Shown here piece by piece: positions 1 through 56,110 of a DNA stretch of 64,000 bases. Position 1 is the stretch's first letter. Each line of letters opens with the position of its first letter. The translations under genes and the position numbers were made by a program. The notes below the pieces were generated by a model that had not been told where the DNA came from, ran no database searches, and saw only the letters and a list, made by a program, of their open reading frames with translations. The DNA is from a virus (Duplodnaviria; Caudoviricetes), in the IMG/VR virus record IMGVR_UViG_3300033074_000711, positions 32,001 to 96,000 of that record. One strand, given 5' to 3'.

Positions 1-181
1 TTTTTGATAAAAATTTAGTTACATCCTTTAGTACATTATATGTGCATATTATTTTGTTATTATCATTTTTATCTCCTAATATAAATATTTTTACCATACC
101 ATATGTTTTTTTAATTTCTTCTACTGTGTTTTCTAATTTTTGTGGTGTAGTAAATGTACACAATAAACTCATTTTTTCCAT
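1..181 (-). CDS. Hypothetical phage protein, runs off the window edge (not in ORF track)
   Basis: ATG at 181 preceded by AGGAG; reads MEKMSLLCTFTTPQKLENTVEEIKKTYGMVKIFILG...CTYNV, open to position 1. Confidence 0.75.
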   Translation of the reverse strand, partial: MEKMSLLCTFTTPQKLENTVEEIKKTYGMVKIFILGDKNDNNKIICTYNVLKDVTKFLSK

Positions 182-190
182 TACAGTCTC

Positions 191-1375
191 CTATTCGTAA
201 ATTTCCATGTTATTGTAATTAACTCCCGCTTTTATTTTTATTTTATATTTATTATTTTCGAAAATACTACTAATATGTGTTAATAATTCTTTATCTTCGA
301 AATTAAAATCTATTAAAATTGAATCATAAATATACAAAATTATTTTTGATTTATAATTATTTTTTTCAATTATATCTAATAATTTTTTAATATTTAGTAT
401 AATCATCTCAGATTCATAACTCTGTAAAAAGTAACTAAATATATTTTTTTTATCTGGAACTTGTATAGGTTTATTAGCAAATGGTGATACTAACACTTCA
501 TATTTATTATAATACATTTCTAAATGTTTTTTAAAATCATCTAATTTTTTAAAAAATTCATGTTCTATTTTTAAATTACCATTTATAGCTGTATAACATA
601 ATTTTTTAACTTCTGATATTTCTAACTCGTTATTATATAAAACTTCATTAAAATATTCATACGGATATTTTTCAAAACTATATCCAATAATATCAGCACA
701 CATATACATAACACAAGCATTATAATCAACTGATACTAAAATACCATCATCACCAAATCTGCTACAAATTTTATCTTTTATTGGTGAATTCTTCCGTAAA
801 TTCATAAAATTTATTCTACCTGTAGCACTGACTCTACCAGCGTTATTTAATAAATTATGATTTAAATCATAATAATTACCATCACAAAATATTTTATTTT
901 GTTCAATTTTATTAAAAACATAAACAAAATCATCATTATAAATTTTAAAATTCTCTAAATTTATTTCATATCTATTAAAATAATTTATCATGTTTTTTAA
1001 TAAATCTAAATAATATTCACAATCAGTTATAACAAACGTTTTATTATTAAATTTTTTATTGTTATTAAAAAAATCACGATTATTTGTAAACATCATAAAT
1101 ATATTAATATCTATAACATTTTGACAATCTTTAAAAAATTTAATAAATCTTTTTTTATCTAATGTTATAATTTTTTTATTTTTTAAAAAATCACTAACAT
1201 CATTATATTTTAAATTTAAACAATCAAATGTGTTTATAGGTATGATATAAAAATTTTTAGTATCTATATCCAAAACATAAATACATATAATTTTTTTATC
1301 TATATAAATTGGTATTATTGCTATATTATAACCAATATTAAATAATAACTGTTTATCTTCAATTATTGTAACCAT
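191..1375 (-). CDS. Short, degenerate family A DNA polymerase-like protein
   Basis: GRVS...INFMNL pre-motif; motif A-like LVSVDYNA; motif B-like KKLCYTAING; LQSYESE; motif C-like LYIYDSILID; only 394 aa. Confidence 0.75.
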   Translation of the reverse strand: MVTIIEDKQLLFNIGYNIAIIPIYIDKKIICIYVLDIDTKNFYIIPINTFDCLNLKYNDVSDFLKNKKIITLDKKRFIKFFKDCQNVIDINIFMMFTNNRDFFNNNKKFNNKTFVITDCEYYLDLLKNMINYFNRYEINLENFKIYNDDFVYVFNKIEQNKIFCDGNYYDLNHNLLNNAGRVSATGRINFMNLRKNSPIKDKICSRFGDDGILVSVDYNACVMYMCADIIGYSFEKYPYEYFNEVLYNNELEISEVKKLCYTAINGNLKIEHEFFKKLDDFKKHLEMYYNKYEVLVSPFANKPIQVPDKKNIFSYFLQSYESEMIILNIKKLLDIIEKNNYKSKIILYIYDSILIDFNFEDKELLTHISSIFENNKYKIKIKAGVNYNNMEIYE

Positions 1376-31128: not shown

Positions 31129-32404
31129 CTATTGATAATAATTCTGGTAATTCTATTTCTTCAAAAACAGGAATATCTGGTATATATTGAGTTAATATTT
31201 CATCTAACTTTTTAGTCATATTATGTAATGAAAACTTTTCAGAATTAATTTTTGCTAAATTATTAGATTTTTCTAAAAAGTATTGATAATTTAACATACA
31301 ATTTATTAATGCTGGTGATATTTTAGTTTCATCAACGTTAAACCATTTAGATTCTTTTATTATAATATCATCCCAAACAGCATTTTTTTCAACAAATTCT
31401 AATGTACCTGGTAATAAAATAGAATGTTCTATATCTAAAAAATCTAACTGACCAGACCAAGCCGTTGTTATTATTGGCTTACCTGTTGTAGAAAATTCAA
31501 GCAAAGGTCTACCAAAACCTTCACCTTTAGTTAAACTAATCATACTTTTAATTTTTTCATGATTATATAAATCATTCATTTGATTTTCATCAAATTCACC
31601 TGTTATTATATAAATATTAGGAAATTTTATTTTATTACCTAATTTTTTTAATATTTTATTTTTTATTTGTTTTATTTTTTTGTTAAAATTGTTCATTTCA
31701 ACTTTACCAAAATTTATACCCACTTTTAAAACTAATCCTGGTTTTTCACTTTCGCTAACCGATTGAAACATACCTATTGAAAACGTTTCTAAGAATTTCT
31801 CAATTAATAATGATACATTTTTTCTATCTGCATTATTTATCATCCATTGACCAACAAATAAATATAAAAATTTGTTATCAATATTATTTAATAAATCCCT
31901 AATAGTTTTACTACAATAATCTTTTTTATAAAAAACTTTAGTATCTACGCCTTCAAATAAAACTTCAACAGGTTTCTGACAAACTAAAACATGATTATCT
32001 TGTGATTGATATTGTGTATACACAATTGTATTTTTACTATGCATGGATGGAACTAAAACCAAATCCATTTGATTTATATTTTCTAACCATTTAGCACTAA
32101 CATGTGTTGTTTCTATTCCTGCTGTTATTCCTATATTATATTTTCCTATTCTTTTAAACTCATTTGGTATTGTTATTTGAACGCAAATATCTGGCTGATT
32201 GGTTATACTATGTATAAGTAAATTATTTAACTCACTTTTTAAATCCTCTGGTATATAATTATTAGGTGTTATACCCCAATTTATTGGAATAATCTTAATA
32301 TCATATTTATCAATCTTTAATAAAGACCTTAAAATATCTCTAGCATGGTCACCGTAACCACTTCTTGATAAAATTGGTGCTATCAATAATAAACTATTTT
32401 TCAT
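31109..32404 (-). CDS. Glycosyltransferase family 4 (GT-B)
   Basis: SRSGYGDHARD, RKNV, KGEGFGRPLLE, WSGQLDFL. Confidence 0.88.
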   Translation of the reverse strand: MKNSLLLIAPILSRSGYGDHARDILRSLLKIDKYDIKIIPINWGITPNNYIPEDLKSELNNLLIHSITNQPDICVQITIPNEFKRIGKYNIGITAGIETTHVSAKWLENINQMDLVLVPSMHSKNTIVYTQYQSQDNHVLVCQKPVEVLFEGVDTKVFYKKDYCSKTIRDLLNNIDNKFLYLFVGQWMINNADRKNVSLLIEKFLETFSIGMFQSVSESEKPGLVLKVGINFGKVEMNNFNKKIKQIKNKILKKLGNKIKFPNIYIITGEFDENQMNDLYNHEKIKSMISLTKGEGFGRPLLEFSTTGKPIITTAWSGQLDFLDIEHSILLPGTLEFVEKNAVWDDIIIKESKWFNVDETKISPALINCMLNYQYFLEKSNNLAKINSEKFSLHNMTKKLDEILTQYIPDIPVFEEIELPELLSIDEVESE

Positions 32405-43703: not shown

Positions 43704-44216
43704 TTAAATTACTTTTTTATTATTCATTATCTCTTTTATTTGCTCAAATGAATATAAATTATAATTATTAGTATCTATACCAACATCTAATCTTTTTTTA
43801 TTAGTAGTATCTATAAATTTTCCGTGACTATGACCATACAAATGCCATGAGCCTCTTTCTTGTTCATTCCAAATTTCCATGCAATAGTGATTCATTATAA
43901 TTCTTTGAAAATTTGTAAATATTTCTAATTGTTCATGTTTTTCAACATTTAAATTATACTTTATATATTTATCGTGATTTCCTAACAAAAATATTATTTT
44001 ACCATTCAATTGTAATAAAATTTGATTAATAAAATCAGGTTTACCAAAAGAAAAATCTCCAATATGATAAACAATACCATCTGATTTAACTGTTTTATTC
44101 CAAATATCTATTAAACCTTTATTCATATCTTCTAAATTTTCAAACGGTCTATTACAATATTTTATAATATTTTTGTGACCAAAATGAAAATCAGATGTAA
44201 AATAAATTTCACTCAA
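43704..44216 (-). CDS. Calcineurin-like phosphoesterase
   Basis: TSDFHFGH, GDF, GNHD, HLYGHSH, DVGID. Confidence 0.9.
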   Translation of the reverse strand: MSEIYFTSDFHFGHKNIIKYCNRPFENLEDMNKGLIDIWNKTVKSDGIVYHIGDFSFGKPDFINQILLQLNGKIIFLLGNHDKYIKYNLNVEKHEQLEIFTNFQRIIMNHYCMEIWNEQERGSWHLYGHSHGKFIDTTNKKRLDVGIDTNNYNLYSFEQIKEIMNNKKVI

Positions 44217-44473
44217 TTTTTTATCCTTATATTAAAATATTTTTCTATTTTACCTGGTATTTTAATTTCATTTATTACATATTTATTATTTACAGATTTA
44301 AATCTACGCCATTCACGTGAAAAGGTATCTGGATTATGCATTACACCTTTATATTCCATTAACTTTTTCACATGAACTTGGAATATTCTTGAACATACTG
44401 TAATTTGACCTTCTAATTTAATTCTATTATCAAGGTACTCTTCTATAAATTTTCTTATGCTTTGTTTTTTCAT
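44213..44473 (-). CDS. Hypothetical protein
   Basis: 86 aa, GAGG SD. Confidence 0.55.
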   Translation of the reverse strand: MKKQSIRKFIEEYLDNRIKLEGQITVCSRIFQVHVKKLMEYKGVMHNPDTFSREWRRFKSVNNKYVINEIKIPGKIEKYFNIRIKN

Positions 44474-44492
44474 TTTTGCAACCTCATTTATG

Positions 44493-44999
44493 TTAATTTT
44501 CTAATGAATTTAAATATTCATCTATTTTCCAATTTTCTACTAAATTTTTAGAATCTTTTGATTTTAAGTAATCACAATATAAAATATTCGGGCACCATGT
44601 TTCAGGTTGGCTTGATTCCACTTTAACTATTCTATCATAATTTTTATCAATGTGTGATATAATATCATACCAATCTGTTATATCATGCATTTTATATGAT
44701 AAAAATAATGCATCGTTAACAGCTTCATTAAATAACATCACTTTAAAATACATTTCTTTTAAAATGTTATCATTTCTTTCAAGTTTAACATATTCATTAT
44801 TATTTTTTATTCGTGTATTAATAAACTTACCAATGCTTTCTCCGTTTTCTTTAGCATTTAATAAATCATTAAAAGTTTCTGGTAAAACATTATTATATGT
44901 ATATAATGTATTACTCCCTTTAAATCGAACTGTTAATTTATCATCATCATAAATTATATGTTCAATATTGCTTGAATTTAAATTATCAATTATTATCAC
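44493..44999 (-). CDS. KTSC-domain protein
   Basis: SSNI..I.YD...L.V.F....Y.Y.NV....F..L..A....SIGKF. Confidence 0.8.
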   Translation of the reverse strand: MIIIDNLNSSNIEHIIYDDDKLTVRFKGSNTLYTYNNVLPETFNDLLNAKENGESIGKFINTRIKNNNEYVKLERNDNILKEMYFKVMLFNEAVNDALFLSYKMHDITDWYDIISHIDKNYDRIVKVESSQPETWCPNILYCDYLKSKDSKNLVENWKIDEYLNSLEN

Positions 45000-45196
45000 T
45001 TTTTCTCCATTTCTTCTAAATATTTAATTTGATTAACTAATTCTGATATTAAAAATTTAATATTTTTTATTTGTTTTAATATAGATAAATCCTCCTCACT
45101 TTTTAACTCTGAAGGATTACTTAAACAGCCGTCTATTAAATTATTTAAGTTTAATTCATTTTCTGTTAATTGTTGTTTCATCTGTTCATAATTCAT
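44996..45196 (-). CDS. Hypothetical protein
   Basis: 66 aa, AGGAG SD. Confidence 0.55.
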   Translation of the reverse strand: MNYEQMKQQLTENELNLNNLIDGCLSNPSELKSEEDLSILKQIKNIKFLISELVNQIKYLEEMEKK

Positions 45197-45216
45197 ATAT
45201 TACTCTCCTGTAAATT

Positions 45217-45247
45217 AAAATAGCGGTAATATTTTATTATTACCGCT
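45217..45247 (-). terminator. Rho-independent terminator
   Basis: AGCGGTAATA-N6-TATTACCGCT; shares the AGCGGTA stem with the capsid terminator. Confidence 0.7.
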
Positions 45248-45256
45248 TGTTTTTTA

Positions 45257-46159
45257 TTAAAAATTAAATGTTTTTGATAGTTGTTTTTGTAAAAATATCA
45301 TTCTTTGTTTTTCTGTTCTACTAACATAAAATGTTAAAATTTGATATAAATTCCAAACATCTATTGTTTGTGGGTCAACTTGCATTAGACTCATCGCTCT
45401 TATTGCAAATTCTGCTCCTCGTAAACCAACTATATTAATTGCTTTATTAAATAATTCTGTTGTTGCTTTTTTGATTTGCATTAATTCGACTTTTTGTTTA
45501 AATACCGGTACTTGTTCTGTGGCTACTTCAATCGCTTCTTTAATACTATTTATATCAAATTTGTTATTGTGTAAAAAATTAATACTACTTAATTCTTTAC
45601 TCCTAACAATCATTCCGTTTGTACAAACTGCTCTAATTAATCCAAATTCAACCTTAACTCTTGTTGAACCATCAAATGAATTTGTTATAAATGTACTAAC
45701 ATAATTTTCTGAATCACCGTCTTTAATTGATAATTCTGGAAAGCTTAAATGTAATGTTGACCGCTTTGGAGTAATTACTGTGTGTTTTTTATGTATTGTA
45801 TAACCGATTTCTTGCATGTTGTCTAAAATAGGCATTAAGATGTCTCTATTTTGAATTAAATTGTAGTGGTTACTCATAAATGATAAAAACTCACCGTTTG
45901 AATTATACAATGCATTTTTCTTAGGGTTTATATATTCACCAGTACTTAATAGTATTTTAGGTGATTTATCTACATAAACGTCAATACAAAACTCATTCAG
46001 CAATTTTGTTACTTCATCATCACCTTTATAAATATCTTTTGTTATTACGTTATTATTTGGTGATGTAATAATATTACCAAACTCATTAATCATTAATGAT
46101 GATTTTTCTGTTTGGTTTTTTGTTTCTAAATTTCTTTTTACTTCTTCGTATGTTAACAT
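45257..46159 (-). CDS. DUF932-like protein
   Basis: Y.LIQN, TNSFDGS, RAVCTNG, H. Confidence 0.75.
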   Translation of the reverse strand: MLTYEEVKRNLETKNQTEKSSLMINEFGNIITSPNNNVITKDIYKGDDEVTKLLNEFCIDVYVDKSPKILLSTGEYINPKKNALYNSNGEFLSFMSNHYNLIQNRDILMPILDNMQEIGYTIHKKHTVITPKRSTLHLSFPELSIKDGDSENYVSTFITNSFDGSTRVKVEFGLIRAVCTNGMIVRSKELSSINFLHNNKFDINSIKEAIEVATEQVPVFKQKVELMQIKKATTELFNKAINIVGLRGAEFAIRAMSLMQVDPQTIDVWNLYQILTFYVSRTEKQRMIFLQKQLSKTFNF

Positions 46160-46197
46160 TGTAACCTCTTATGTTTAATTAATTTTAATTTCTAATA

Positions 46198-46230
46198 CAA
46201 ATATAACAAATTAATTTGAAAAAGTAAATA
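46198..46230 (-). promoter_or_regulatory. Host sigma70-type promoter TTTACT-N17-TATATTTG (fits the Bacteroidota-type TAnnTTTG element)
   Basis: TATTTACTTTTTCAAATTAATTTGTTATATTTG. Confidence 0.6.
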
Positions 46231-46231
46231 G

Positions 46232-46444
46232 TTAATTAATTTTTTTTTCATAATTATTTTTAATTCTTTTTATTTCTCTAGCAAAAACAAAAATAAAACT
46301 AATTATAAATATTATTATAAAATCAACCCACAGTGGACTAAATATATACCACCAACTCCAATTAATATTATTTGTTAATTTTAACACTAAAAAAATTAAT
46401 GTCAAAATCATAGGTAAAGATAAACCATCACTCTTTGTTTGCAT
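46232..46444 (-). CDS. Small two-helix membrane protein
   Basis: LTLIFLVLKLT..INWSWWYIFSPLW. Confidence 0.75.
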   Translation of the reverse strand: MQTKSDGLSLPMILTLIFLVLKLTNNINWSWWYIFSPLWVDFIIIFIISFIFVFAREIKRIKNNYEKKIN

Positions 46445-46446
46445 TA

Positions 46447-47268
46447 TTATAAATCCTTAATTTTATTTAATTTATTTTTAAACTCTATTATTTCATTATT
46501 ACTTAAATTTTGTAAATCAGTTGAATTTATTAGATTTATGTCTATTATATTTTTAATAATATTTAATTCATCCTTACTGAATTTTAAGCTATTTAATTCA
46601 TAATCTTCAAAAGCTTCCCATGTTAATGGAAATAAATCTTTAATTATTTCTACAATTGCATTAGCATACTGACGTATTTCAAATTGAGCATGATAGTCTA
46701 ATCTTAATTTAAGAAAATGTAGTAAATTATGTAAATCAATTTTCCAATATGCTTCGGTATAATTAGATAATAGTAAATCTTTACGTGCTTGCTCTCTTGC
46801 TAAACCTAATTCTAATCTTTGTTTATATATATTTTTTGTTAGTATGTGTAGTTGACGTTCTTTTTCTGTTAAAATTTCACCAATATTTTTTTCTAAAAAA
46901 CCATCACTTCCTTGTTTGTTATCTTTAGATTGTAATCTCCATTCGTCGCTATTTGTATATTCATTTTCATCTATTGCTATAGAATATCTAGTTGAATATT
47001 CATTTACTGACGCAGTTCTATGTCTAATCCATTGCCTCCAAACATCTATTGGCACTTTTATATGAAATTTAATCTCACACATTTCTAACGGGCTTGTATG
47101 TTTATGTCTAACTAAATATCTAATTAATGCTCTATCTTGACTAACTGTTTTAGTTCCTTTACCATATGAAACTCTTGCGGCTTCAACTATAGCACCATCA
47201 CTTCCCATATAATCAACTAATCTTACAAAACCGTGCTTTAAAACATTTATTTTTTTATAATTATCCAT
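46447..47268 (-). CDS. thyX: Flavin-dependent thymidylate synthase
   Basis: AARVSY, HTSPLE, QWIRHR....NEYSTRY, REQAR, HAQFEIR. Confidence 0.96.
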   Translation of the reverse strand: MDNYKKINVLKHGFVRLVDYMGSDGAIVEAARVSYGKGTKTVSQDRALIRYLVRHKHTSPLEMCEIKFHIKVPIDVWRQWIRHRTASVNEYSTRYSIAIDENEYTNSDEWRLQSKDNKQGSDGFLEKNIGEILTEKERQLHILTKNIYKQRLELGLAREQARKDLLLSNYTEAYWKIDLHNLLHFLKLRLDYHAQFEIRQYANAIVEIIKDLFPLTWEAFEDYELNSLKFSKDELNIIKNIIDINLINSTDLQNLSNNEIIEFKNKLNKIKDL

Positions 47269-47298
47269 TAATATCTCACTAAAATTATCAATTTACAC

Positions 47299-48291
47299 TT
47301 ATAACTCACATTGGCCACCAGCACATGCTAACTCACCTTGTAAATCTGTTTCATCATCATCTTCTATAATTTTAGTTATATCAACTTCTTTTAAATGTGA
47401 CATCAAATCGTTATATTTTTCTTCTGTAATAGATTCAAACGGTGCTTGAATATATGTACCACCATCATAAGGAAGAACCGAAATACCATTATAACCATTT
47501 CTATTTTCCCATAACCATTTTCCAACAGATTCCCACTCATCATCTTTTATTGATATTGTAACACTAACATTATTATAATTAGAACCTTTGTTATGACCTT
47601 TCATAACCCATTCGGTGTTAAATTTTTTAACACGGTCTAATAATTTAAAAACACTTTCGGTTCTTATTTTAGCTGTTTCGGGTGCTTTTAATGGTATTGA
47701 GATAACTGATTGTAAATGTGGTTTAAAATAATCGTCTTCTAATAACTCTTTGTGTTTTTTATTTAAATATTTATATATAGCTTCATTTTTACCAACTCTA
47801 ATTCTTCTAATATAATATTTATCGTGATATGCGTGTATACCACTTGAAGTACCAAGAACTAAAGCTGATGTGCCACTTGGTTTAACTGTTGTTGTTCTCG
47901 CTGATGTGTTTATATTTAATATCTTAGAAACTCTTTTATTTTCTTTCACTACAATTTTACTGGCTTCTTCTAAATTCAAATTATCTAATGCACCACTTGC
48001 GATACCAGTTATACCAACACCAATTAACGCATCTTTTTCTGTTGATTCTTTCCATACACTTCTTAAATAATGAAAATCTGTATAGCCAGCTTGTAATGTT
48101 GCTATAAACGATGCCACTCTGGCTCTGTTATTAAAATCTTCTTGATTTTCTATGTTGCTAGCATTTATTTCAACTAGATTACAAAATGAAAATGGTTTTA
48201 AGGAAATTTCTGAACAATCTACATTCAAAATACTGTTATCCAAGTGTGTTGAATTTTGTTTTGTGTGCTTTTTAATACTATTTATTTTCAT
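47299..48291 (-). CDS. nrdJ: Class II ribonucleotide reductase C-terminal fragment with a 25-aa split-intein C-fragment
   Basis: ...SILNVD|CSEISL..FSFCNL; TTVKPSGT, SSGIH, YIQAPFE, LACAGGQCEL. Confidence 0.9.
   Translation of the reverse strand: MKINSIKKHTKQNSTHLDNSILNVDCSEISLKPFSFCNLVEINASNIENQEDFNNRARVASFIATLQAGYTDFHYLRSVWKESTEKDALIGVGITGIASGALDNLNLEEASKIVVKENKRVSKILNINTSARTTTVKPSGTSALVLGTSSGIHAYHDKYYIRRIRVGKNEAIYKYLNKKHKELLEDDYFKPHLQSVISIPLKAPETAKIRTESVFKLLDRVKKFNTEWVMKGHNKGSNYNNVSVTISIKDDEWESVGKWLWENRNGYNGISVLPYDGGTYIQAPFESITEEKYNDLMSHLKEVDITKIIEDDDETDLQGELACAGGQCEL
48217..48291 (-). mobile_element. NrdJ split intein C-fragment (25 aa, ends in Asp)
   Basis: MKINSIKKHTKQNSTHLDNSILNVD precedes the catalytic Cys. 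Confidence 0.7.
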
Positions 48292-49597
48292 AATTTTCCA
48301 TTAATATTTTTATTAAATTATCAACAGTATTATAATATTTTACTATTGATTTTATTCCTATTTTTGCATTTATTTTATTTATTTCACGCTTTCTTATCAA
48401 TAATATCTCATTTAAATTTTGTTTTTTTAACATACTAATAACATAATTTAAAGACGTATCTAATATCCATTTATCTAAAAATATAATTATTGATGTTTTT
48501 CCCATTTTAATATGTGTTGTTTTTTTCTTTTCTTTTCTAATACACACTTTACATAATTTTTCCGATTCTTTTTTTATTTTATTTATAATATTATCACAAT
48601 TTTTACATTTAATATTATAATCATATTTTAATAAACTTTTTTTAAAATTTGTTTTAGCTAGTGATTCTGCTCTCTTAATTTTACTTTCTTTTGATAAATT
48701 TTGTTCTCTTATTTTAGCTCGTTGTGAAGCCTTATCATATAAAGTTGGGTCATCTATATATCTTTGTTTTTGTGAATTTGATAATTTTTTTCTATATTCT
48801 GGATTTTTTCCTAATTCTTTTAACTTTTTACTAATTTTTTTACGTGTTTGTTCAGTAACTATTGCTCCATATCTTGGATTTAATTTACCAACATTAGTTC
48901 TATTAGTATTTGGTGAATTTTTCCAATTTTGTAATTTATTTTTTAATTCTATACTAACTTCTTCATCAAAGTTTGTTACAATTTCATATAAAATGTTATT
49001 TTTATTAAAATATTCTATAACTAGTTTATATTTATCGGTTATTATAAAGCTTTTATCTTTTACTTCTAATAATTTAACTAATATGTTATCTTTATAAATA
49101 AAAAAGTCAGGTTTATAGTTAAATTTATTATCTATATTAAACATATATTCTTCATATCGTATGTTGTTTATGCCATATTTATTTGACAATATATGATAAT
49201 ATAAAAATTCATTAGATGAGCGACAATAACATGAAACACCATCGATTTCAAACGAACCACTACAGCCACGACTGTTAAATTTTTTTAAATGTTTTTTAGC
49301 AACATCACTTCTATTTGTATTTTTATAACTAACAGACATAAATTCATTTGAATATTTTTTATAATTAACGTTAGCTTGTTCAAAATTCATATTCTTTCTT
49401 AAAATCCAATATGATAAACTACACTTTGAATTAGAACTATTAATAAATTTAACTATCTCAATAGCATCATTTTTATTTATATTAAAAATATTTATTTGTA
49501 AATAATTTATTGTATTAATTAAAAATTTAGAAAATCCTTTTCTTATTTTTTTATTTGCTAAAAATTCTATCTTATTTTGCAAAACATCATCATTCAT
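48278..49597 (-). mobile_element. Free-standing homing endonuclease between the NrdJ halves (PD-(D/E)XK plus NUMOD3)
   Basis: CRSSNE, IRYE, YKPDFF, LLEVK; GKLNPRYG...TEQTRKKIS. Confidence 0.85.
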
Positions 49598-49621
49598 AAC
49601 AATATCTCATTTTAATATATT

Positions 49622-49631
49622 AATAAATATA
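49622..49631 (-). promoter_or_regulatory. Late-promoter variant TATATTTATT upstream of the endonuclease
   Basis: Lies in the 39-nt gap between the nrdJ-N stop and the endonuclease ATG. Confidence 0.5.
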
Positions 49632-49636
49632 TAAAA

Positions 49637-51112
49637 TTATAAAATATCATCACATATTTCTAAATCTTTAGCAAATTTTTTACCAAATTGTGTGTTGATG
49701 ATTTCATATGGATAAAAATATATTGATTCATTTATTTCAATTTTTTCTTCACCAAATGTTTCGTCACAACAATAATTAGCAAAAAAATTAAAGTTCGGTG
49801 TTGCAGTTAAATCATAAACTGGTTCATTATAATTTAATTTTTCGACTTTAATAATATTTACTATCCTATTATACCCTAATACATTAACAATTTCACCATT
49901 ATTTAAATTGTTGATTGTATTTTGTACAGAGATTTCTGAAAAATCTTCTTTATAAAACTTATGGGTAATATTAGTTAATTGAAAACAACCATTATTAAAA
50001 TAAATTTTATATATATTATCATCTTTATTTGTTATTCCACACCAATTTAATTCAGATTCAAATAACTCACCATATTTATCTTGTGTAATAATCTTAATAT
50101 TTTTATCACTATTATATATTTTTGATAGTTTTTGTATTTCTACAAATCCTTTATTAGTTAATACTTTTGTTGAACCAACAACGCAAGGATTTGTACCAAC
50201 TTCCTTATCATTAGAAAATAAAAATCCAGGTTCACCTGATTTAGATAATTCTATTTTTTTCCAAAGTTTGTTAAAATCTTCTTCTTTAATTCTATGTCTT
50301 AGTAAAACAACACTGTTATTAGCTCTTGCTCTCTGTGGATTTAACTCCCACCAATTACCGAATTTACACGATAACATATCTTCATCATCAAAACTAAATA
50401 ATGAAATTAATGCGGCTCTCCTTATTCCACCAGCTAATACAGCATCTGCTATATAACAAATTATATCATGTGCTTGTATTGATTTTAATTTTTCACCTTC
50501 ACCGACACTATCTAATATTTTTTGAATATTATGTAAACAATCTTTTAATGGTTGGGGGCCTGGTGCTTTACCACCACTTGTGATTAATTTAGCACCTTTT
50601 GGTCTAATATCACTAAAATCAAAATTTGGTAAATGACTTCCGTTAAAATATGCATTCATTAAAACTTTAACAGCATCAGCCCATCCTTCTATACTATCAC
50701 CTATCAAATATCTTTTTAATTTACCCGGTTTTTTTATAGATGGTAATTTTTTAATATGGTGTTTTTGAACGCTAACACCAACACCAGAACCACCTAATAA
50801 TAAAAACATTATTTCTTGAAATGATTCTACTGCATCTACTGGTAAAAAAGAACAATTGTAAATTCTATTTGGTGAAATTTCTATTGATTTACCAGCAAAT
50901 TGTAAACTTCGCATTGATGGTAAAACTTTTTTATCATAAACATATTTATATGCTTCTTCTATTTCATCTTTTAAATTTTGATGTTTTTTTAAATGCATTT
51001 CTTTATTTCTTGTAACTAATTCATACCAATTTTCTCTTCTTTTTTTATGTGGTATGTATTTAGCATATTTCATATGTACTATAATATCTGATAAAATTTT
51101 ATTAGCTATCAT
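49637..51112 (-). CDS. nrdJ: Class II ribonucleotide reductase N-terminal fragment plus a 182-aa split-intein N-fragment
   Basis: KYA, LPSMRSLQF, YNC, DSIEGWAD, GGIRRAALI, SGEPG, GTNP|CVVGSTKVLT. Confidence 0.92.
   Translation of the reverse strand: MIANKILSDIIVHMKYAKYIPHKKRRENWYELVTRNKEMHLKKHQNLKDEIEEAYKYVYDKKVLPSMRSLQFAGKSIEISPNRIYNCSFLPVDAVESFQEIMFLLLGGSGVGVSVQKHHIKKLPSIKKPGKLKRYLIGDSIEGWADAVKVLMNAYFNGSHLPNFDFSDIRPKGAKLITSGGKAPGPQPLKDCLHNIQKILDSVGEGEKLKSIQAHDIICYIADAVLAGGIRRAALISLFSFDDEDMLSCKFGNWWELNPQRARANNSVVLLRHRIKEEDFNKLWKKIELSKSGEPGFLFSNDKEVGTNPCVVGSTKVLTNKGFVEIQKLSKIYNSDKNIKIITQDKYGELFESELNWCGITNKDDNIYKIYFNNGCFQLTNITHKFYKEDFSEISVQNTINNLNNGEIVNVLGYNRIVNIIKVEKLNYNEPVYDLTATPNFNFFANYCCDETFGEEKIEINESIYFYPYEIINTQFGKKFAKDLEICDDIL
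49640..50185 (-). mobile_element. NrdJ split intein N-fragment with blocks A, B, F and an extra Hint-like tail
   Basis: CVVGSTKVLT, TNITHKF, VYDLTATPNFNFFAN, then tail ...NTQFGKKFAKDLEICDDIL*. Confidence 0.82.
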
Positions 51113-51124
51113 AAATTTCCTTTT

Positions 51125-51313
51125 TTAAAAAAATTTTAAAATTTCATTCTTTGAAAATCCTGCTTTTAATAACATTTTAACAATATCATCTTTTTTATAA
51201 TTATTTTTTAATAAAATTTTAACAGCTTCTTTGTGATTCATACCGCCTAAAGCTTCAGCTCCGAATTCACTTAATTTTAATGTTTCTAATGCTACTTTAA
51301 CTTGATTATTCAT
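51125..51313 (-). CDS. Hypothetical protein
   Basis: 62 aa in the operon. Confidence 0.55.
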   Translation of the reverse strand: MNNQVKVALETLKLSEFGAEALGGMNHKEAVKILLKNNYKKDDIVKMLLKAGFSKNEILKFF

Positions 51314-51328
51314 TTTATTACTCTTTTT

Positions 51329-51970
51329 TTATTTTTTATCCATATAAAAACTTCTTAATAATAATAACACAGCCCAGCAATCATAACTTGCATCATGTAA
51401 TTTACTTTCATCAAACTTAATATCAGCACGTCTAAGACATTCTTTTAAATCTGGAATACATTCATCATTAACAATATCTGTATATAATATAGCTGGATCT
51501 AAAATCCTATGTCTATAGCATAAATTATAATCATTATAAAATAAATTAAAATTATTTTGTATGATAGGAATATCAAAATTTGATATATTTTTTCCAGCTA
51601 AATTTAATAATACTTTTGGAAAAATATATTTTATTTTTTCTTCACCGTCAACTGTAAATTTATATTTTTCTATTTTTTCAAATGGAATTTCTAAACATTT
51701 ATAAACAAATTCTATAACATATTTGATAACATCTTTAGGTTTTACTAAAATATCTGGATTATTTTCTATAAACGTTAATAATTTACTATTAAATTTTAAT
51801 GTTTGTGGTGAACCTATCAGTGGTATATTTTCTATATATAGATTTAATTTTGGTAAATCTTCTAATGGTAATTGCTTATCAGTATCTTCAAATATCATTG
51901 TAAATTGTAAAACTTGTGCATCTTTTACTGATGTATCTGTAGTTTCGGTATCAATTATAAAATATTTCAT
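51329..51970 (-). CDS. DEDDh 3'-5' exonuclease
   Basis: IDTETT, GKN..NFD, LD, HDASYD. Confidence 0.85.
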   Translation of the reverse strand: MKYFIIDTETTDTSVKDAQVLQFTMIFEDTDKQLPLEDLPKLNLYIENIPLIGSPQTLKFNSKLLTFIENNPDILVKPKDVIKYVIEFVYKCLEIPFEKIEKYKFTVDGEEKIKYIFPKVLLNLAGKNISNFDIPIIQNNFNLFYNDYNLCYRHRILDPAILYTDIVNDECIPDLKECLRRADIKFDESKLHDASYDCWAVLLLLRSFYMDKK

Positions 51971-51980
51971 AAAAAACCTA

Positions 51981-52547
51981 TTATTTAGTTATTTGTTCGT
52001 TTATTCTTATTAACCATAAATCACTAGTGACTATTTTCATTTTATTATAGTATTTATCATTTTTAGCACCATAATAATATTTAATTAAATCATCTATAAT
52101 GAATTTATCATTTTGTTTTTCATTAATAATATTAATAAAATATCTTAAAATAAATGCTGTAGCATGGATATTGTTATCAATTTTTCTTAATTCATTTTTT
52201 GATTTAGCTATATTATTTTCAATTAATTTATTTTTCCAACATGACCATACTACACCACCTAAGCCTACAGCATAATCATTATTATGTTTAATCCAAAATT
52301 TATATTCAGTTTCTATTCTAAATATAGAATGCAATAATCCTATAGGTAAATTATATTTAATAGAATATATTTGCATATTAAATATTATTTTTTCTATATC
52401 TTTATTTTTTAAATAATTATATGTTTTTAAATCTTCTTTTATAAGTTCTGATTGAAAATTATCTAATTTTAAATAACAAGTTTTATTTTGATTAGCTGTA
52501 TTATATTGTAAATGTGTTATAAAAAACAATATTAGAAAATATCTCAT
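51981..52547 (-). CDS. Lytic transglycosylase (SLT-like) with N-terminal hydrophobic segment
   Basis: IFRIETEY (catalytic Glu), AVGLGGV, NNI...AFIL, YYG. Confidence 0.65.
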   Translation of the reverse strand: MRYFLILFFITHLQYNTANQNKTCYLKLDNFQSELIKEDLKTYNYLKNKDIEKIIFNMQIYSIKYNLPIGLLHSIFRIETEYKFWIKHNNDYAVGLGGVVWSCWKNKLIENNIAKSKNELRKIDNNIHATAFILRYFINIINEKQNDKFIIDDLIKYYYGAKNDKYYNKMKIVTSDLWLIRINEQITK

Positions 52548-52580
52548 GTAACTTTATCCTTGTGTTAATGTATATTAAAA

Positions 52581-52620
52581 ATAAATATAAAAAAATTTTA
52601 AATATTTTATACTTTTTTTT
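52581..52620 (-). promoter_or_regulatory. Late promoter region, identical to 21324-21363
   Basis: 40-bp exact duplicate. Confidence 0.65.
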
Positions 52621-52627
52621 TATTTTT

Positions 52628-53290
52628 TTAATCTAAATCATACGAAAAAATTTCTAATAAGTCAAGATATGTTATCATTAATTTTTGATATATTTTTATC
52701 TGTGTTCCAACACCTAATCTTCTAGACCTTATTTTAAATAAATCTTTTCTCATTTGAAATGTATTAATGTTTTTAGCTGATATCTCTGAAAATAAATTCA
52801 TATTATAATCTTCAAATTTACTAATCATTGATAAAATTTGTTCTATTTTTTGAATTTTATTAACTATAGATTGTTGATTCATACTTGAATTTTTAAGAAC
52901 CATATATTCATATTTAGATTCTAAAAATATAGTTTCATTAAAAATTTTAACATAATTTAATAAAAAACCTAAAATATTAGGGTTTAATAAATTATTAGAT
53001 TTTAAACTTGAAACATTTACTCCATTTACATAAAATCCACTTTCATTAACACCTAATGTTAATACATGTGTTCCATAATCTTCAATATTTATTAATAAAT
53101 TTAATAAATTGTTCATATTAGTATGTTTAGATTCTAATATCTTTATATCATTTGATATGAAATTTATAAAATTATTAAAAAATTTAAAAAATAATTCATT
53201 ATAAAATTTTTTTAATTTTATATCATCAGAAGAAGTATTTTCTAATTTTTCTTTAAGTTTTTTTAATACAGCTAAAAGTTTAGCTTTCAT
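52628..53290 (-). CDS. Hypothetical protein
   Basis: 220 aa, AGGTG SD. Confidence 0.55.
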   Translation of the reverse strand: MKAKLLAVLKKLKEKLENTSSDDIKLKKFYNELFFKFFNNFINFISNDIKILESKHTNMNNLLNLLINIEDYGTHVLTLGVNESGFYVNGVNVSSLKSNNLLNPNILGFLLNYVKIFNETIFLESKYEYMVLKNSSMNQQSIVNKIQKIEQILSMISKFEDYNMNLFSEISAKNINTFQMRKDLFKIRSRRLGVGTQIKIYQKLMITYLDLLEIFSYDLD

Positions 53291-53453
53291 ATGTCACCTA
53301 TTTTCTTTTTTTTTTGTTAAAATGATGTTATCATTTTATAATTATATAATTTATTTATTTATATTTATATATTTTATACTTAGATATAATTTATATTTAT
53401 ATAATTTAATAATTATATAGTATTATAATTTTGATATAAGTACTATATAATTA

Positions 53454-53500
53454 TAATATTGTAATATTGTAATATTGTAATATTGTAATATTGTAATATT
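53454..53500. repeat. Tandem octamer repeat (TAATATTG)x5 plus a partial copy, in the divergent intergenic region
   Basis: Read directly from the sequence. Confidence 0.92.
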
Positions 53501-53519
53501 CTCATTAGGGTAACTATTA

Positions 53520-53617
53520 TATAAATATAAGAAAGTTTTATTAAATTTTATACTTTTTTTCAAAAATTTTAATTTTTTTTATATTTATATAAAAATTTTA
53601 ACTTTTTTATATTTATA
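53520..53617. promoter_or_regulatory. Divergent late promoters
   Basis: TATATTTATA on minus at 53520-53529 and on plus at 53580-53589 and 53608-53617. Confidence 0.6.
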
Positions 53618-53641
53618 ACTATAAAAAACGGAATACATTTC

Positions 53642-56110
53642 ATGGCAATACTACAATTTAGAAGAGGAAATACACCATCATCACCGTCAGAATTAGGCTC
53701 AGGTGAACTTTATTTAGACTTAACTCAAGATAAATTTTTATATAAAAATGTAGGTGGTGATAAATTATATTCAATTTCAAGGTCAAATGTTGTTAATAAT
53801 TTAACACAATTAAATAATATAAGTTCATTATTATTAGAAACTGGTGATATAGGTGTAACAACCGATGACCAAAGAGTTTATATGAGAAGTGGTTCTAATT
53901 GGTATCCATTAATGTATGAAAGATTATTAAATTCTGAAGATATTTCTAATAATGCTATAACTGGTGATAAAATATTAACAGGTTCAATAAGTTATGAAAA
54001 TTTAAATGATGATTTAAAATTTACAGTTGATAATATTAATAATAATTTAAAATATGGTTTAGATTTTGATGGTAATACAGAATATTTAACTAGACCTATT
54101 CAAATAATATCAAAAACCGATTGGAGAACATTATCAAATTTTAACAGTATTTTAAATGTTACTGGTAGTAACTCTAATATATCAAATGACTTATCTAGAC
54201 CATATGTAGTACCACTTAGTTCATCATTATTTAACTCTAATGGTTATATTGGAGTTACTGGTAGTGCTGGATTAATAGTTGGCAAAAGATATATGGGTAG
54301 AATAACTTATTATAACGATAATGCTACAGATTTTAGAATAGGGTCAACAAATAGTAGTAGTGCATATAAATTATTAGATAAAAAAAGTAAAAATTGGCAA
54401 GAATCAGAATTTAATTTTATAGCTACTAGTACAGATATTTATGTTAAATTAAATGGAACTGGCACAGGATATGTTCAAGAATTAAGAATAAAAGAAGATA
54501 CTGGGTTAGATTTAAATGATTCTGAAATGATTGATAATAGAATATCAAGAAAGTTTACAACATCTGGTGTGTTCAACTATCAATCAGATTTTAGTAGTGG
54601 ATTAAGTAACTTCACTGCTGTTAGAAGTGTAGCTACTGGTAACAACGATGGTGTTAGTGATGGTTCAATCTCATACGATAATGTATTAAAATATTATGCA
54701 AACAATGAAACAGACACTCATTATATTAATTTACCAAATGCTAACACTAATTTAAGATTAAATAAATCTTATAGGATTAAATTTTGGTATTTAATACCAT
54801 CAACTAATACTAATGTGAAACGTTTAATTTCGACAAATGGCATTTCAACTATATTTGGTTCTAGTGATGGTACCGTATTAGATATGTGGACTGAATACTC
54901 AGCAGATGTTGTGGTTACTATAGATTTAACAAATATAAGATTATATTTGGGCACGTCATTTTCATTAACTTTTACAGGTTCTAATTCACCAACTGACGAT
55001 TTAGTATATATATATGATTATAGAATTGAAGAAATACCACAAGAACAAAGTAACGGTAATCACGCTTTTTCTATTGACTCAATAACAGCATTTAATGCTA
55101 GTGGTGTGACTAATAAAAGTAAATGTGGTAAGATTATTTCAAGTGGTACCGGTGACAGTGATTCAAATAATATTAGTTTACCTGCAACAAGTTTTAATGT
55201 TTTGGGCTCAACTGATAGTAGAACAAAAGTATTAAGTGGTTTCAAATATTTAATTACTTTCCTTGCTAAAGCCGCAACTAACAACACAACAATAAATGTG
55301 AATATTGGTAGTAAAACGGGAACAGCATTAACGCTTGCTGACAATACAAAATGGTATTTATATACTTATCAATTTTTAGCAACAAGTTCGGAAGTTGATG
55401 CACAACTAAAAATATTCTTAAATCAAGCTGATACTGTTTATATTGACGAATTAAGTATATCAAAAGCATACGATATGCTAATTAATATCTGGGATAGGAA
55501 TGTAATGGGTTTATCAAATTTAAATATAATTTGTTTTGGGGCTCTGGGTTCTTTAAATTCAAATGGGTATAGAATATATAGACCTATGCCAAACGATTTA
55601 TTATATTTTAGAATACAAGGGTATGAATATACAACAGCGAATCCAACTTATTCAAATTCTTTAATAATATCGAATAATAAATCTATTATATTACAATTTT
55701 TATTACGCACAGGTAACATAAAAAGATATGAAAATGACACATCATTAAGTGATTATACTACTATATTTTCATATATAAATAATTATTCATCTAATTTATT
55801 TTTTGGTGCTTTATCAACTTTATCTGAAAAATATCTTGGTCTAATCGGTCAAATACAATTTGTAAGATTTAATAATGCTGATTCTTTTAATCCTCTTGAT
55901 ATTGATGGAGCAGGAACTTCAATTTATGAATATTCTCAAACACATAAAGGTTACCCTAACTCTTATACAGGCGGTGAAATAGTATTTTGGTTTGATTGGG
56001 TCGGTGATACAGATACAGAAATGCTCACTGATTTAAGTGGTAGAGGAAATAATTTGACAGGCGTAAATGTAACATTATTAGATGATAGACGAAGATATAT
56101 TTTAGAATAA
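53642..56110 (+). CDS. Tail fibre / virion adhesin with carbohydrate-binding and LamG-like domains
   Basis: MAILQFRRG...GELYLD anchor; LDFDG..EYL; VYIDELSI; C-terminal DLSGRGNN. Confidence 0.65.
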   Translation: MAILQFRRGNTPSSPSELGSGELYLDLTQDKFLYKNVGGDKLYSISRSNVVNNLTQLNNISSLLLETGDIGVTTDDQRVYMRSGSNWYPLMYERLLNSEDISNNAITGDKILTGSISYENLNDDLKFTVDNINNNLKYGLDFDGNTEYLTRPIQIISKTDWRTLSNFNSILNVTGSNSNISNDLSRPYVVPLSSSLFNSNGYIGVTGSAGLIVGKRYMGRITYYNDNATDFRIGSTNSSSAYKLLDKKSKNWQESEFNFIATSTDIYVKLNGTGTGYVQELRIKEDTGLDLNDSEMIDNRISRKFTTSGVFNYQSDFSSGLSNFTAVRSVATGNNDGVSDGSISYDNVLKYYANNETDTHYINLPNANTNLRLNKSYRIKFWYLIPSTNTNVKRLISTNGISTIFGSSDGTVLDMWTEYSADVVVTIDLTNIRLYLGTSFSLTFTGSNSPTDDLVYIYDYRIEEIPQEQSNGNHAFSIDSITAFNASGVTNKSKCGKIISSGTGDSDSNNISLPATSFNVLGSTDSRTKVLSGFKYLITFLAKAATNNTTINVNIGSKTGTALTLADNTKWYLYTYQFLATSSEVDAQLKIFLNQADTVYIDELSISKAYDMLINIWDRNVMGLSNLNIICFGALGSLNSNGYRIYRPMPNDLLYFRIQGYEYTTANPTYSNSLIISNNKSIILQFLLRTGNIKRYENDTSLSDYTTIFSYINNYSSNLFFGALSTLSEKYLGLIGQIQFVRFNNADSFNPLDIDGAGTSIYEYSQTHKGYPNSYTGGEIVFWFDWVGDTDTEMLTDLSGRGNNLTGVNVTLLDDRRRYILE

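Follow-up and report, generated by a model that had tools for sequence, protein, structure and literature searches.

Anatomy of the nrdJ locus

We examined a 64,000-nucleotide (nt) stretch of DNA, referred to here as the window, that covers positions 32,001 to 96,000 of the IMG/VR virus record IMGVR_UViG_3300033074_000711 (Duplodnaviria; Caudoviricetes). The source record is 155.9 kb long, with a guanine-plus-cytosine (GC) content of about 23% and an estimated completeness of about 67%. On the minus strand of the window lies a locus for NrdJ, a class II ribonucleotide reductase (RNR), in which an N-gene, an open reading frame (ORF) of 439 amino acids (aa), and a C-gene follow one another in succession, with the parts of an intein divided between the first and the last (Table 1). 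An earlier note on this DNA had described nrdJ as broken at GTNP/CSEI (a slash within a motif marks a break or insertion site throughout), with a 182-aa N-terminal intein fragment (IntN) that carries blocks A, B, and F and ends in a 45-aa tail. The ORFs and their translations match that description of the two halves, which left unmentioned the 439-aa ORF situated in the break, a layout known from "fractured genes."

Table 1. Features of the nrdJ locus, with positions in the window
Feature	Position	Strand	Content or basis
N-gene	49637..51112	(-)	491 aa; NrdJ residues 1-309 up to GTNP, plus 182 intein residues
NrdJ N-extein, residues 1-309, ending ...EVGTNP	50186..51112	(-)	RNR-II_ins_dom and RNR_Alpha matches
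Intein Hint core, positions 1-137: block A with Cys1, block B N72..H75, block F VYDLT...NFFAN	49775..50185	(-)	NrdJ-1 alignment, invariant columns, ratio of nonsynonymous to synonymous substitution rates (dN/dS)
45-aa tail, N-terminal part of F-G insert module, ending ...KDLEICDDIL	49640..49774	(-)	Translation, family alignment, co-fold contacts
Middle ORF, candidate free-standing homing endonuclease, 439 aa	48278..49597	(-)	Motif, sub-cut-off NUMOD3 match, homologous ORFs in L006, L007, L008
C-gene	47299..48291	(-)	330 aa; 25 intein residues, then CSEI and the remaining NrdJ
Head of C-terminal intein fragment (IntC), residues 1-19 (MKINSIKK...), C-terminal part of insert module	48235..48291	(-)	Pattern M-[KI]-I-x-K-I in 5 loci; tail contacts in co-fold
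Block G strand SILNVD with C-terminal Asp25	48217..48234	(-)	Conserved pattern; pairing with NFFAN in co-fold
NrdJ C-extein, from Cys+1 through stop codon	47299..48216	(-)	Ribonuc_red_lgC match

The first intein residue, Cys1, is residue 310 of the N-gene (window 50185-50183), and the block motifs that follow read CVVGSTKVLT for A, NITHKF for B, and VYDLTATPNFNFFAN for F, before the N-gene closes with a TAA stop codon (49637-49639). The C-gene begins MKINSIKKHTKQNSTHLDNSILNVD and continues with CSEI, with Asp25 encoded at 48219-48217 and Cys+1 at 48216-48214; this Cys+1 of the C-extein is the thiyl-radical Cys of the TNPC loop. The middle ORF lies in the frame of the N-gene, yet because the TAA and a further TGA precede its ATG, read-through from one into the other is no option.

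The N-extein is 67.7% identical to the NrdJ of Microcystis phage Mel-JY01 (residues 2-310). When the 207 intein residues (182 plus 25) were removed in silico, a colinear host protein was restored. The ligated exteins form a 614-aa NrdJ, residues 2-614 of which align to residues 3-616 of the 617-aa, intein-less Mel-JY01 protein at 63% identity, with one gap in total and none at the GTNPC junction.

Intein blocks and catalytic residues

We found that a profile of the intein aligns over positions 2-137 to residues 5-142 of the NrdJ-1 intein (8ubs, fused; E 3.7e-4). Because the alignment passes through this whole region, the N-gene holds blocks A through F uninterrupted, the canonical split point included, and only block G is encoded by the C-gene. 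The N-terminal nucleophile of a class 1 intein is present, as Cys1 stands directly after GTNP and is invariant in all aligned members of the intein family described below. Also invariant in the family are N72, H75, the Asp of VYDLT, the terminal Asp, and Cys+1.

The remaining catalytic positions depart from the canonical pattern. In block B the His of TxxH is retained, while the place of the Thr, which NrdJ-1 has, is held by the invariant Asn (NxxH), and in block F the His of NrdJ-1 is replaced by Phe or Tyr. Block G has neither the penultimate His nor the terminal Asn, and every member of the family ends in [VE]-D before Cys+1.

Recurrence of the architecture across phages

The same two-gene split occurs in five further loci with DNA (L002, L006, L007, L008, and L009), and this recurrence of one architecture in independent loci excludes a chance origin. 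A close homologue, P0002 (JGI contig L002; 66% identity), ends at the same residue as the N-gene product of the window; there, a 48-nt gap with a ribosome-binding site (RBS) and no ORF leads to a C-gene whose 29-aa head ends SVLNVD before the Cys. L009 has a similar layout (N-gene, stop, 91-nt gap with an RBS, C-gene) and no nuclease ORF. In L007 and L008, the N-gene is followed by an ORF of 413 or 419 aa homologous to the window's middle ORF and then by the C-gene, and in L006 a homologous nuclease ORF likewise follows the N-gene. Across all loci, IntC is 25-29 aa long, starts M-[KI]-I-x-K-I, and ends S-[IV]-L-N-[VE]-D, the ending being found in all five split loci.

In a comparison of the window with L002, dN/dS was 0.21 in the N-extein and 0.22 across intein blocks A-F, and the G strand stood at 0.28. 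By these ratios, the extein, the intein core, and the G strand are all under purifying selection.

The homologue search for which the earlier note had called was made with a profile against 1.84 billion cluster representatives (50%-identity clusters). It returned 26 matches below 1e-10, which we sorted by the sequence that follows block F. Eighteen proteins (19 with P0022) share the tail stop, terminating 46-60 residues past block F, 16 of them at 46-49 residues, at ...GDE[IL][IL]. The other eight (P0016, P0018, P0020, P0023-26, and P0028) are contiguous members with the same insert between blocks F and G, and they run on for 24-67 more residues to [SL][ILV]L[NS]VD/C and the C-extein. Class II RNRs of several kinds serve as hosts, the insertion site is always TNP/C, and Asp stands directly before Cys+1 in every member. 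On a tree of the intein cores, at least one change between the split and contiguous states is forced and three are most parsimonious, with weak support for the tree.

Five more loci with DNA and about 18 more protein clusters thus retain the break between blocks F and G, the short, Asp-terminated IntC, and the absence of a penultimate His. The graft proposed in the earlier note is not unique to this locus; it belongs to a family that includes contiguous members with the same insert. Judged from its sequences, this is an apparently phage-borne intein family inserted before the thiyl-radical Cys (TNP/C) of class II RNRs. Its marks are a beta-rich insert of 24-67 aa that separates block F from block G, an Asp rather than an Asn at the C terminus, the lack of both the penultimate and the block F His, and a break that in most members falls within the insert. 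The N-protein of the window carries a nearly complete Hint domain (blocks A, B, and F) with the first insert strands, and the C-protein carries only the last insert strands with the block G strand. The family looks phage-borne because a pattern scan of one genome from each of 185,579 prokaryote species found no member, the one match (L011) being confined to residues 1-32. A single-protein scan of viral contigs gave no match.

Two candidates from these searches were set aside. L003, a match from the metagenome scan, is an unrelated intein of phosphoenolpyruvate synthase with a similar block A, and a word-indexed search with the IntC region returned only P0004, an intein-less NrdJ fragment.

Several of the host genes carry more than one intein. 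In a 43-kb viral contig (L009:4098-8366), three split inteins divide an RNR into four genes in a row; the first is of the F-G type and the other two are canonical B/F splits whose IntC ends HN/S and HN/T, and none of the three gaps holds an endonuclease gene. P0009, P0011, P0022, and P0023 (L010:2766-7187) have a second intein upstream of the family member, bearing a LAGLIDADG endonuclease in some and being a mini-intein in others. In P0070, residues 281-421 form a canonical contiguous RNR mini-intein ending ...NHNFFANGVLVHN before CAEEP, apparently, by its sequence, at the same TNP/C type of site (+1 Cys). It could be the normal counterpart of the family, without the F-G insert and with an Asn end.

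Predicted fold of the F-G insert

We modeled the contiguous relative P0016 with AlphaFold2 (213 aa with flanks, 11-row alignment). The model reached a predicted local distance difference test score (pLDDT) of 90.8, with 88-95 over the insert, and a predicted template modeling score of 0.88. Its best match in the PDB was the NrdJ-1 intein, which is the closest solved relative of the family in both sequence and fold (8ubs_A; Z 19.1, root-mean-square deviation [rmsd] 1.9 Å, 140 aligned residues, model 4..210 to chain 2..151). As modeled, the Hint fold of P0016 is complete, the G strand occupies its usual position, and about 65 residues are additional; the prediction concerns this relative rather than the window's own chains.

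Folded alone, the 66-aa insert is predicted to form an extra beta module (pLDDT 78.8). Nearly all of its top 40 Foldseek matches were inteins, the best being 6bs8_C (E 0.14, probability 0.99). In an exhaustive alignment against 48,161 chains, only 32 reached Z 2, and the top 28 were all Hint domains; these matches are weak (Z 5.8 to 2.3, rmsd mostly 4-6.7 Å) but Hint-specific. Most of these alignments place the insert on the middle of the Hint domain, around the canonical split site, for instance on 52..127 of 8ubs and 36..103 of gp41-1.

Profile-profile comparison of the insert gave nothing significant against the family's own Hint core (probability 0.2%) or against eight canonical mini-inteins (1.2%), and its profile had no match among PDB sequences. 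The sole stretch aligned between the insert and the mini-inteins was KKFAKDLEICDDIL, at the end of the tail, which fell on the strand before the canonical split site. The proposal, made in the earlier note, that a canonical split junction was grafted into this hairpin as a docking module finds support: the co-fold contacts described below agree with it, as does a structural resemblance to Hint domains only (weak, with Z up to 5.8), whereas significant profile homology did not emerge.

With moderate confidence, we regard the insert, as modeled, as a module resembling half a Hint domain, either the remnant of a nested intein or a duplicated lobe. More tentatively, and with the odds somewhat against it, the insert may have been domesticated from an inner intein or a Hint lobe duplicated in place, the break in the outer intein then having arisen at the canonical endonuclease or split site of that inner module. 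If true, an inner-module origin would explain a natural third break point.

Co-fold of the two intein halves

The earlier note had also proposed co-folding the two fragments. We did so with the window IntN (187 aa, including 5 extein residues) and IntC with 15 extein residues, and the pair passed with a score of 0.91, compared with 0.00 for the best of three controls. The mark used was reached by 58 of 80 solved complexes and by 2 of 110 mismatched pairs, counts that are rough because our own alignments were used. The runs agreed in at least 81% of contacts, and the partner pLDDT was at least 65.

In the predicted complex, the SILN strand of IntC (residues 20-23) is paired with NFFAN of block F and in contact with the region of the block B His, and Asp25 and Cys26 (Cys+1) lie against Asn-Pro-Cys1. 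IntC residues 1-10 contact tail residues 180-186 and the strands that precede them. We know of no solved structure in which these contacts between tail and head occur.

The ORF between the halves

The middle ORF contains the motif YKPDF...E[VI]K, of the PD-(D/E)xK type, which is conserved in three homologues, together with a NUMOD3-like stretch and a Cys-rich stretch that are common to the homologues. All of its matches in Pfam were below the cut-off, among them NUMOD3 (E 0.0071, 16.7 bits, against a cut-off of 20.4), and the Tn7_TnsA-like_N hidden Markov model gave none. Nothing significant was found against PDB sequences or PHROGs. Look-alike clusters in the Atlas carry NUMOD3, Tn7_TnsA-like_N, and DUF1064, which we take as a lead only.

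Only some alleles have the putative nuclease ORF, and where it occurs it always lies between the two halves. At its 3' end it runs into the start of the C-gene, by 14 nt in the window (48278-48291), 20 nt in L007 (7105-7124), and 35 nt in L008 (6838-6872). Given this presence and absence in the gap and this overlap, the middle ORF behaves as the free-standing homing endonuclease of a fractured gene (Dassa et al. 2009, PMC2677866), and the locus has the parts of one: a host gene in two ORFs that bear intein parts, with a putative endonuclease ORF between them. A stretch reading GGAAAATT-ATG before the start of the C-gene is common to the window and the nuclease-free allele L002, which suggests that the nuclease gene lies just upstream of a pre-existing RBS. 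A promoter scan did no better than on shuffled sequence.

Proposed mechanism and alternative explanations

We put at roughly 0.8 the probability that the window encodes a working, naturally split intein of the class 1 type in a fractured phage nrdJ, broken within a Hint-like insert that serves as a docking module; that it splices is what we infer. On this reading, the insert halves would dock by strand complementation once the two proteins meet in the cell, and docking would place the SILNVD strand beside NFFAN of block F and bring Asp25 and Cys+1 close to Cys1. Splicing would then take its usual course, beginning with an N-S shift at Cys1 and passing through transfer to Cys+1 and cyclization of the terminal Asp to a final S-N shift, and the product would be NrdJ with an intact GTNP-CSEI loop. 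The gap ORF would act as a free-standing homing endonuclease of the PD-(D/E)xK/NUMOD3 type that spreads the cassette.

Several points weigh against this interpretation. The family lacks both the block F His and the penultimate His and ends in Asp, which points to an atypical last splicing step. Rare inteins that end in Asp are known, however, and Asp-terminated inteins reportedly splice. Part of the co-fold result may be memory, because the pairing of blocks F and G occurs in every solved intein. The dN/dS of the tail against L002 is 0.84 on 44 codons, a noisy value from which constraint is not clear. The nuclease assignment rests on the motif, the sub-threshold NUMOD3 match, and the Atlas look-alikes. 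Finally, an intact RNR elsewhere, which the earlier note had named as a finding that would speak against its interpretation, was not encountered, as the record holds only one nrdJ C-half; at about 67% completeness, a second RNR may nevertheless lie outside the record.

Among the alternatives, the one that survives best, although we think it unlikely, is that the halves associate non-covalently through their intein pieces and never splice, so that the RNR is a two-chain complex, functional or not. There is precedent in a functional split NrdA, from a phage nrdA that was cut by a free-standing endonuclease without an intein (cited in Dassa et al. 2009, PMC2677866), and the atypical C-terminal chemistry, with Asp and no assisting His residues, could mean that the last step has been lost. 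In this locus, however, it is the active-site loop TNPC that is broken, and the catalytic Cys would be left with about 207 foreign residues. Docking alone would require none of Cys1, the block B His, the block F Asp, the terminal Asp, or Cys+1, yet all are invariant in split and contiguous members alike, and the contiguous members must splice to obtain an intact RNR loop.

It is less probable still that the locus has decayed, leaving a dead intein remnant in a pseudogenized nrdJ. Non-canonical residues at three positions that normally aid catalysis would fit such decay, as would the incompleteness of the genome record. Against this, the ORFs are intact, about 18 diverged clusters share the stop position, the extein and the intein core alike have a dN/dS of about 0.2, and the predicted fold and docking are confident.

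We give little credence to an active nested split intein, in which an inner element, running from the Cys of YCCDETF to HLDN/S, would trans-splice before the outer intein splices in cis. The insert does resemble a Hint domain in fold, a Cys stands at the start of the tail in the window and in L002, and the window has N/S before the G strand. This idea had been raised in the earlier note as a less likely alternative, and it finds no backing in the family, where neither the Cys nor the Asn is conserved: the Cys is replaced elsewhere by I, Y, H, R, or K, and the residue before the Ser varies among E, R, K, and N. At about 62-67 aa, the module is small and lacks a block B His, and in contiguous members the insert stays in the intein permanently. 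Least credible of all is that the interruption is an intron with a nuclease ORF, removed at the RNA level as are the group I introns that phage RNR genes often bear (PMC3653736), or an assembly artifact, given that Rfam yielded no match at E up to 1 within window positions 44000-54000, that the N- and C-genes are in different frames, that a stop, an RBS, and an ATG are present even in alleles that lack the nuclease ORF, and that the same layout is found in independent assemblies from different samples.

Comparison with known split inteins

With the terminase intein as the one exception, natural split inteins are all broken at the place where endonuclease domains insert (Dassa et al. 2009, PMC2677866), and natural IntC fragments are about 35-40 aa long, with the atypical natural cases having a short IntN (Pasch et al. 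2023, PMC10189870). The window intein departs from the canonical type exemplified by DnaE, gp41-1, and NrdJ-1, with its B/F break and IntC of that length, in that IntC carries block G only. Like NrdJ-1 and other fractured-gene inteins (PMC2677866; 8ubs), it interrupts the active-site loop of a phage class II RNR, begins with Cys1, and has a free-standing endonuclease gene between its halves. NrdJ-1, however, sits one residue further along (TNPC/S), has the canonical B/F split, and has an IntC of about 40 aa with blocks F and G that ends HN, whereas the window intein sits at TNP/C, is contiguous at the canonical site, breaks after block F in an extra insert, and has a 25-aa IntC that ends VD. 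The gap ORF is a PD-(D/E)xK/TnsA-like candidate rather than an evident nuclease of the Vsr-like or GIY-YIG type.

A break near the C terminus, with a near-complete Hint domain in the large fragment and the last strand in the small one, is shared with the engineered, short-IntC S11 split inteins (Ssp DnaB and GyrB; PMC11766414). Those are man-made cuts in contiguous mini-inteins that have a terminal Asn and no docking module, whereas the present family is natural and recurrent and has a split insert that is predicted to dock. AceL-TerL, GOS-TerL, VidaL, and PolB16 OarG (PMC10189870) resemble it in being natural, derived from phages or metagenomes, and broken at a non-canonical point that leaves one very short fragment. 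In that group, the break comes soon after block A and the short piece is the N-fragment (15-25 aa, within the 15-30 aa typical of a short IntN), whereas the window IntN has 182 aa and its short piece is the C-fragment. Chy RIR1 is said to be an Asp-terminated RNR intein that is contiguous and cellular. In the literature we searched, no paper on natural F-G splits or nested inteins was found, which is not proof of absence; the layout recurs in many uncultured phages and seems to be undescribed.

Natural split inteins are the best-behaved tools for protein ligation, and their value for semi-synthesis hinges on one fragment being short enough to synthesize. A family that is natural and recurrent and combines an IntC of 25-29 aa with a docking module would be a new starting point for C-terminal labeling and, if active, would offer a ready-made scaffold for attaching synthetic peptides to protein C termini. 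If the insert does derive from an inner module, the window would hold the shortest natural IntC, of 25 aa, in which docking module and Asp-based C-terminal chemistry come built in. The family bears on how the last splicing step runs with Asp and without two helper His residues. It also bears on why inteins break where they do, as here the break and the endonuclease gene lie in a Hint-like insert and not at the usual site of the functional Hint domain.

Neighboring genes

Directly 3' of the C-gene lies an ORF for a ThyX-like flavin-dependent thymidylate synthase (46447-47268, minus strand), which we assigned by eye from its translation. Because this ORF adjoins the nrdJ C-half, the locus can be regarded as a nucleotide-metabolism block. 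ORFs on the minus strand continue through at least 45-53.5 kb, and GC skew turns from negative to positive near 54 kb (window about 53000-54500), where the coding strand probably switches.

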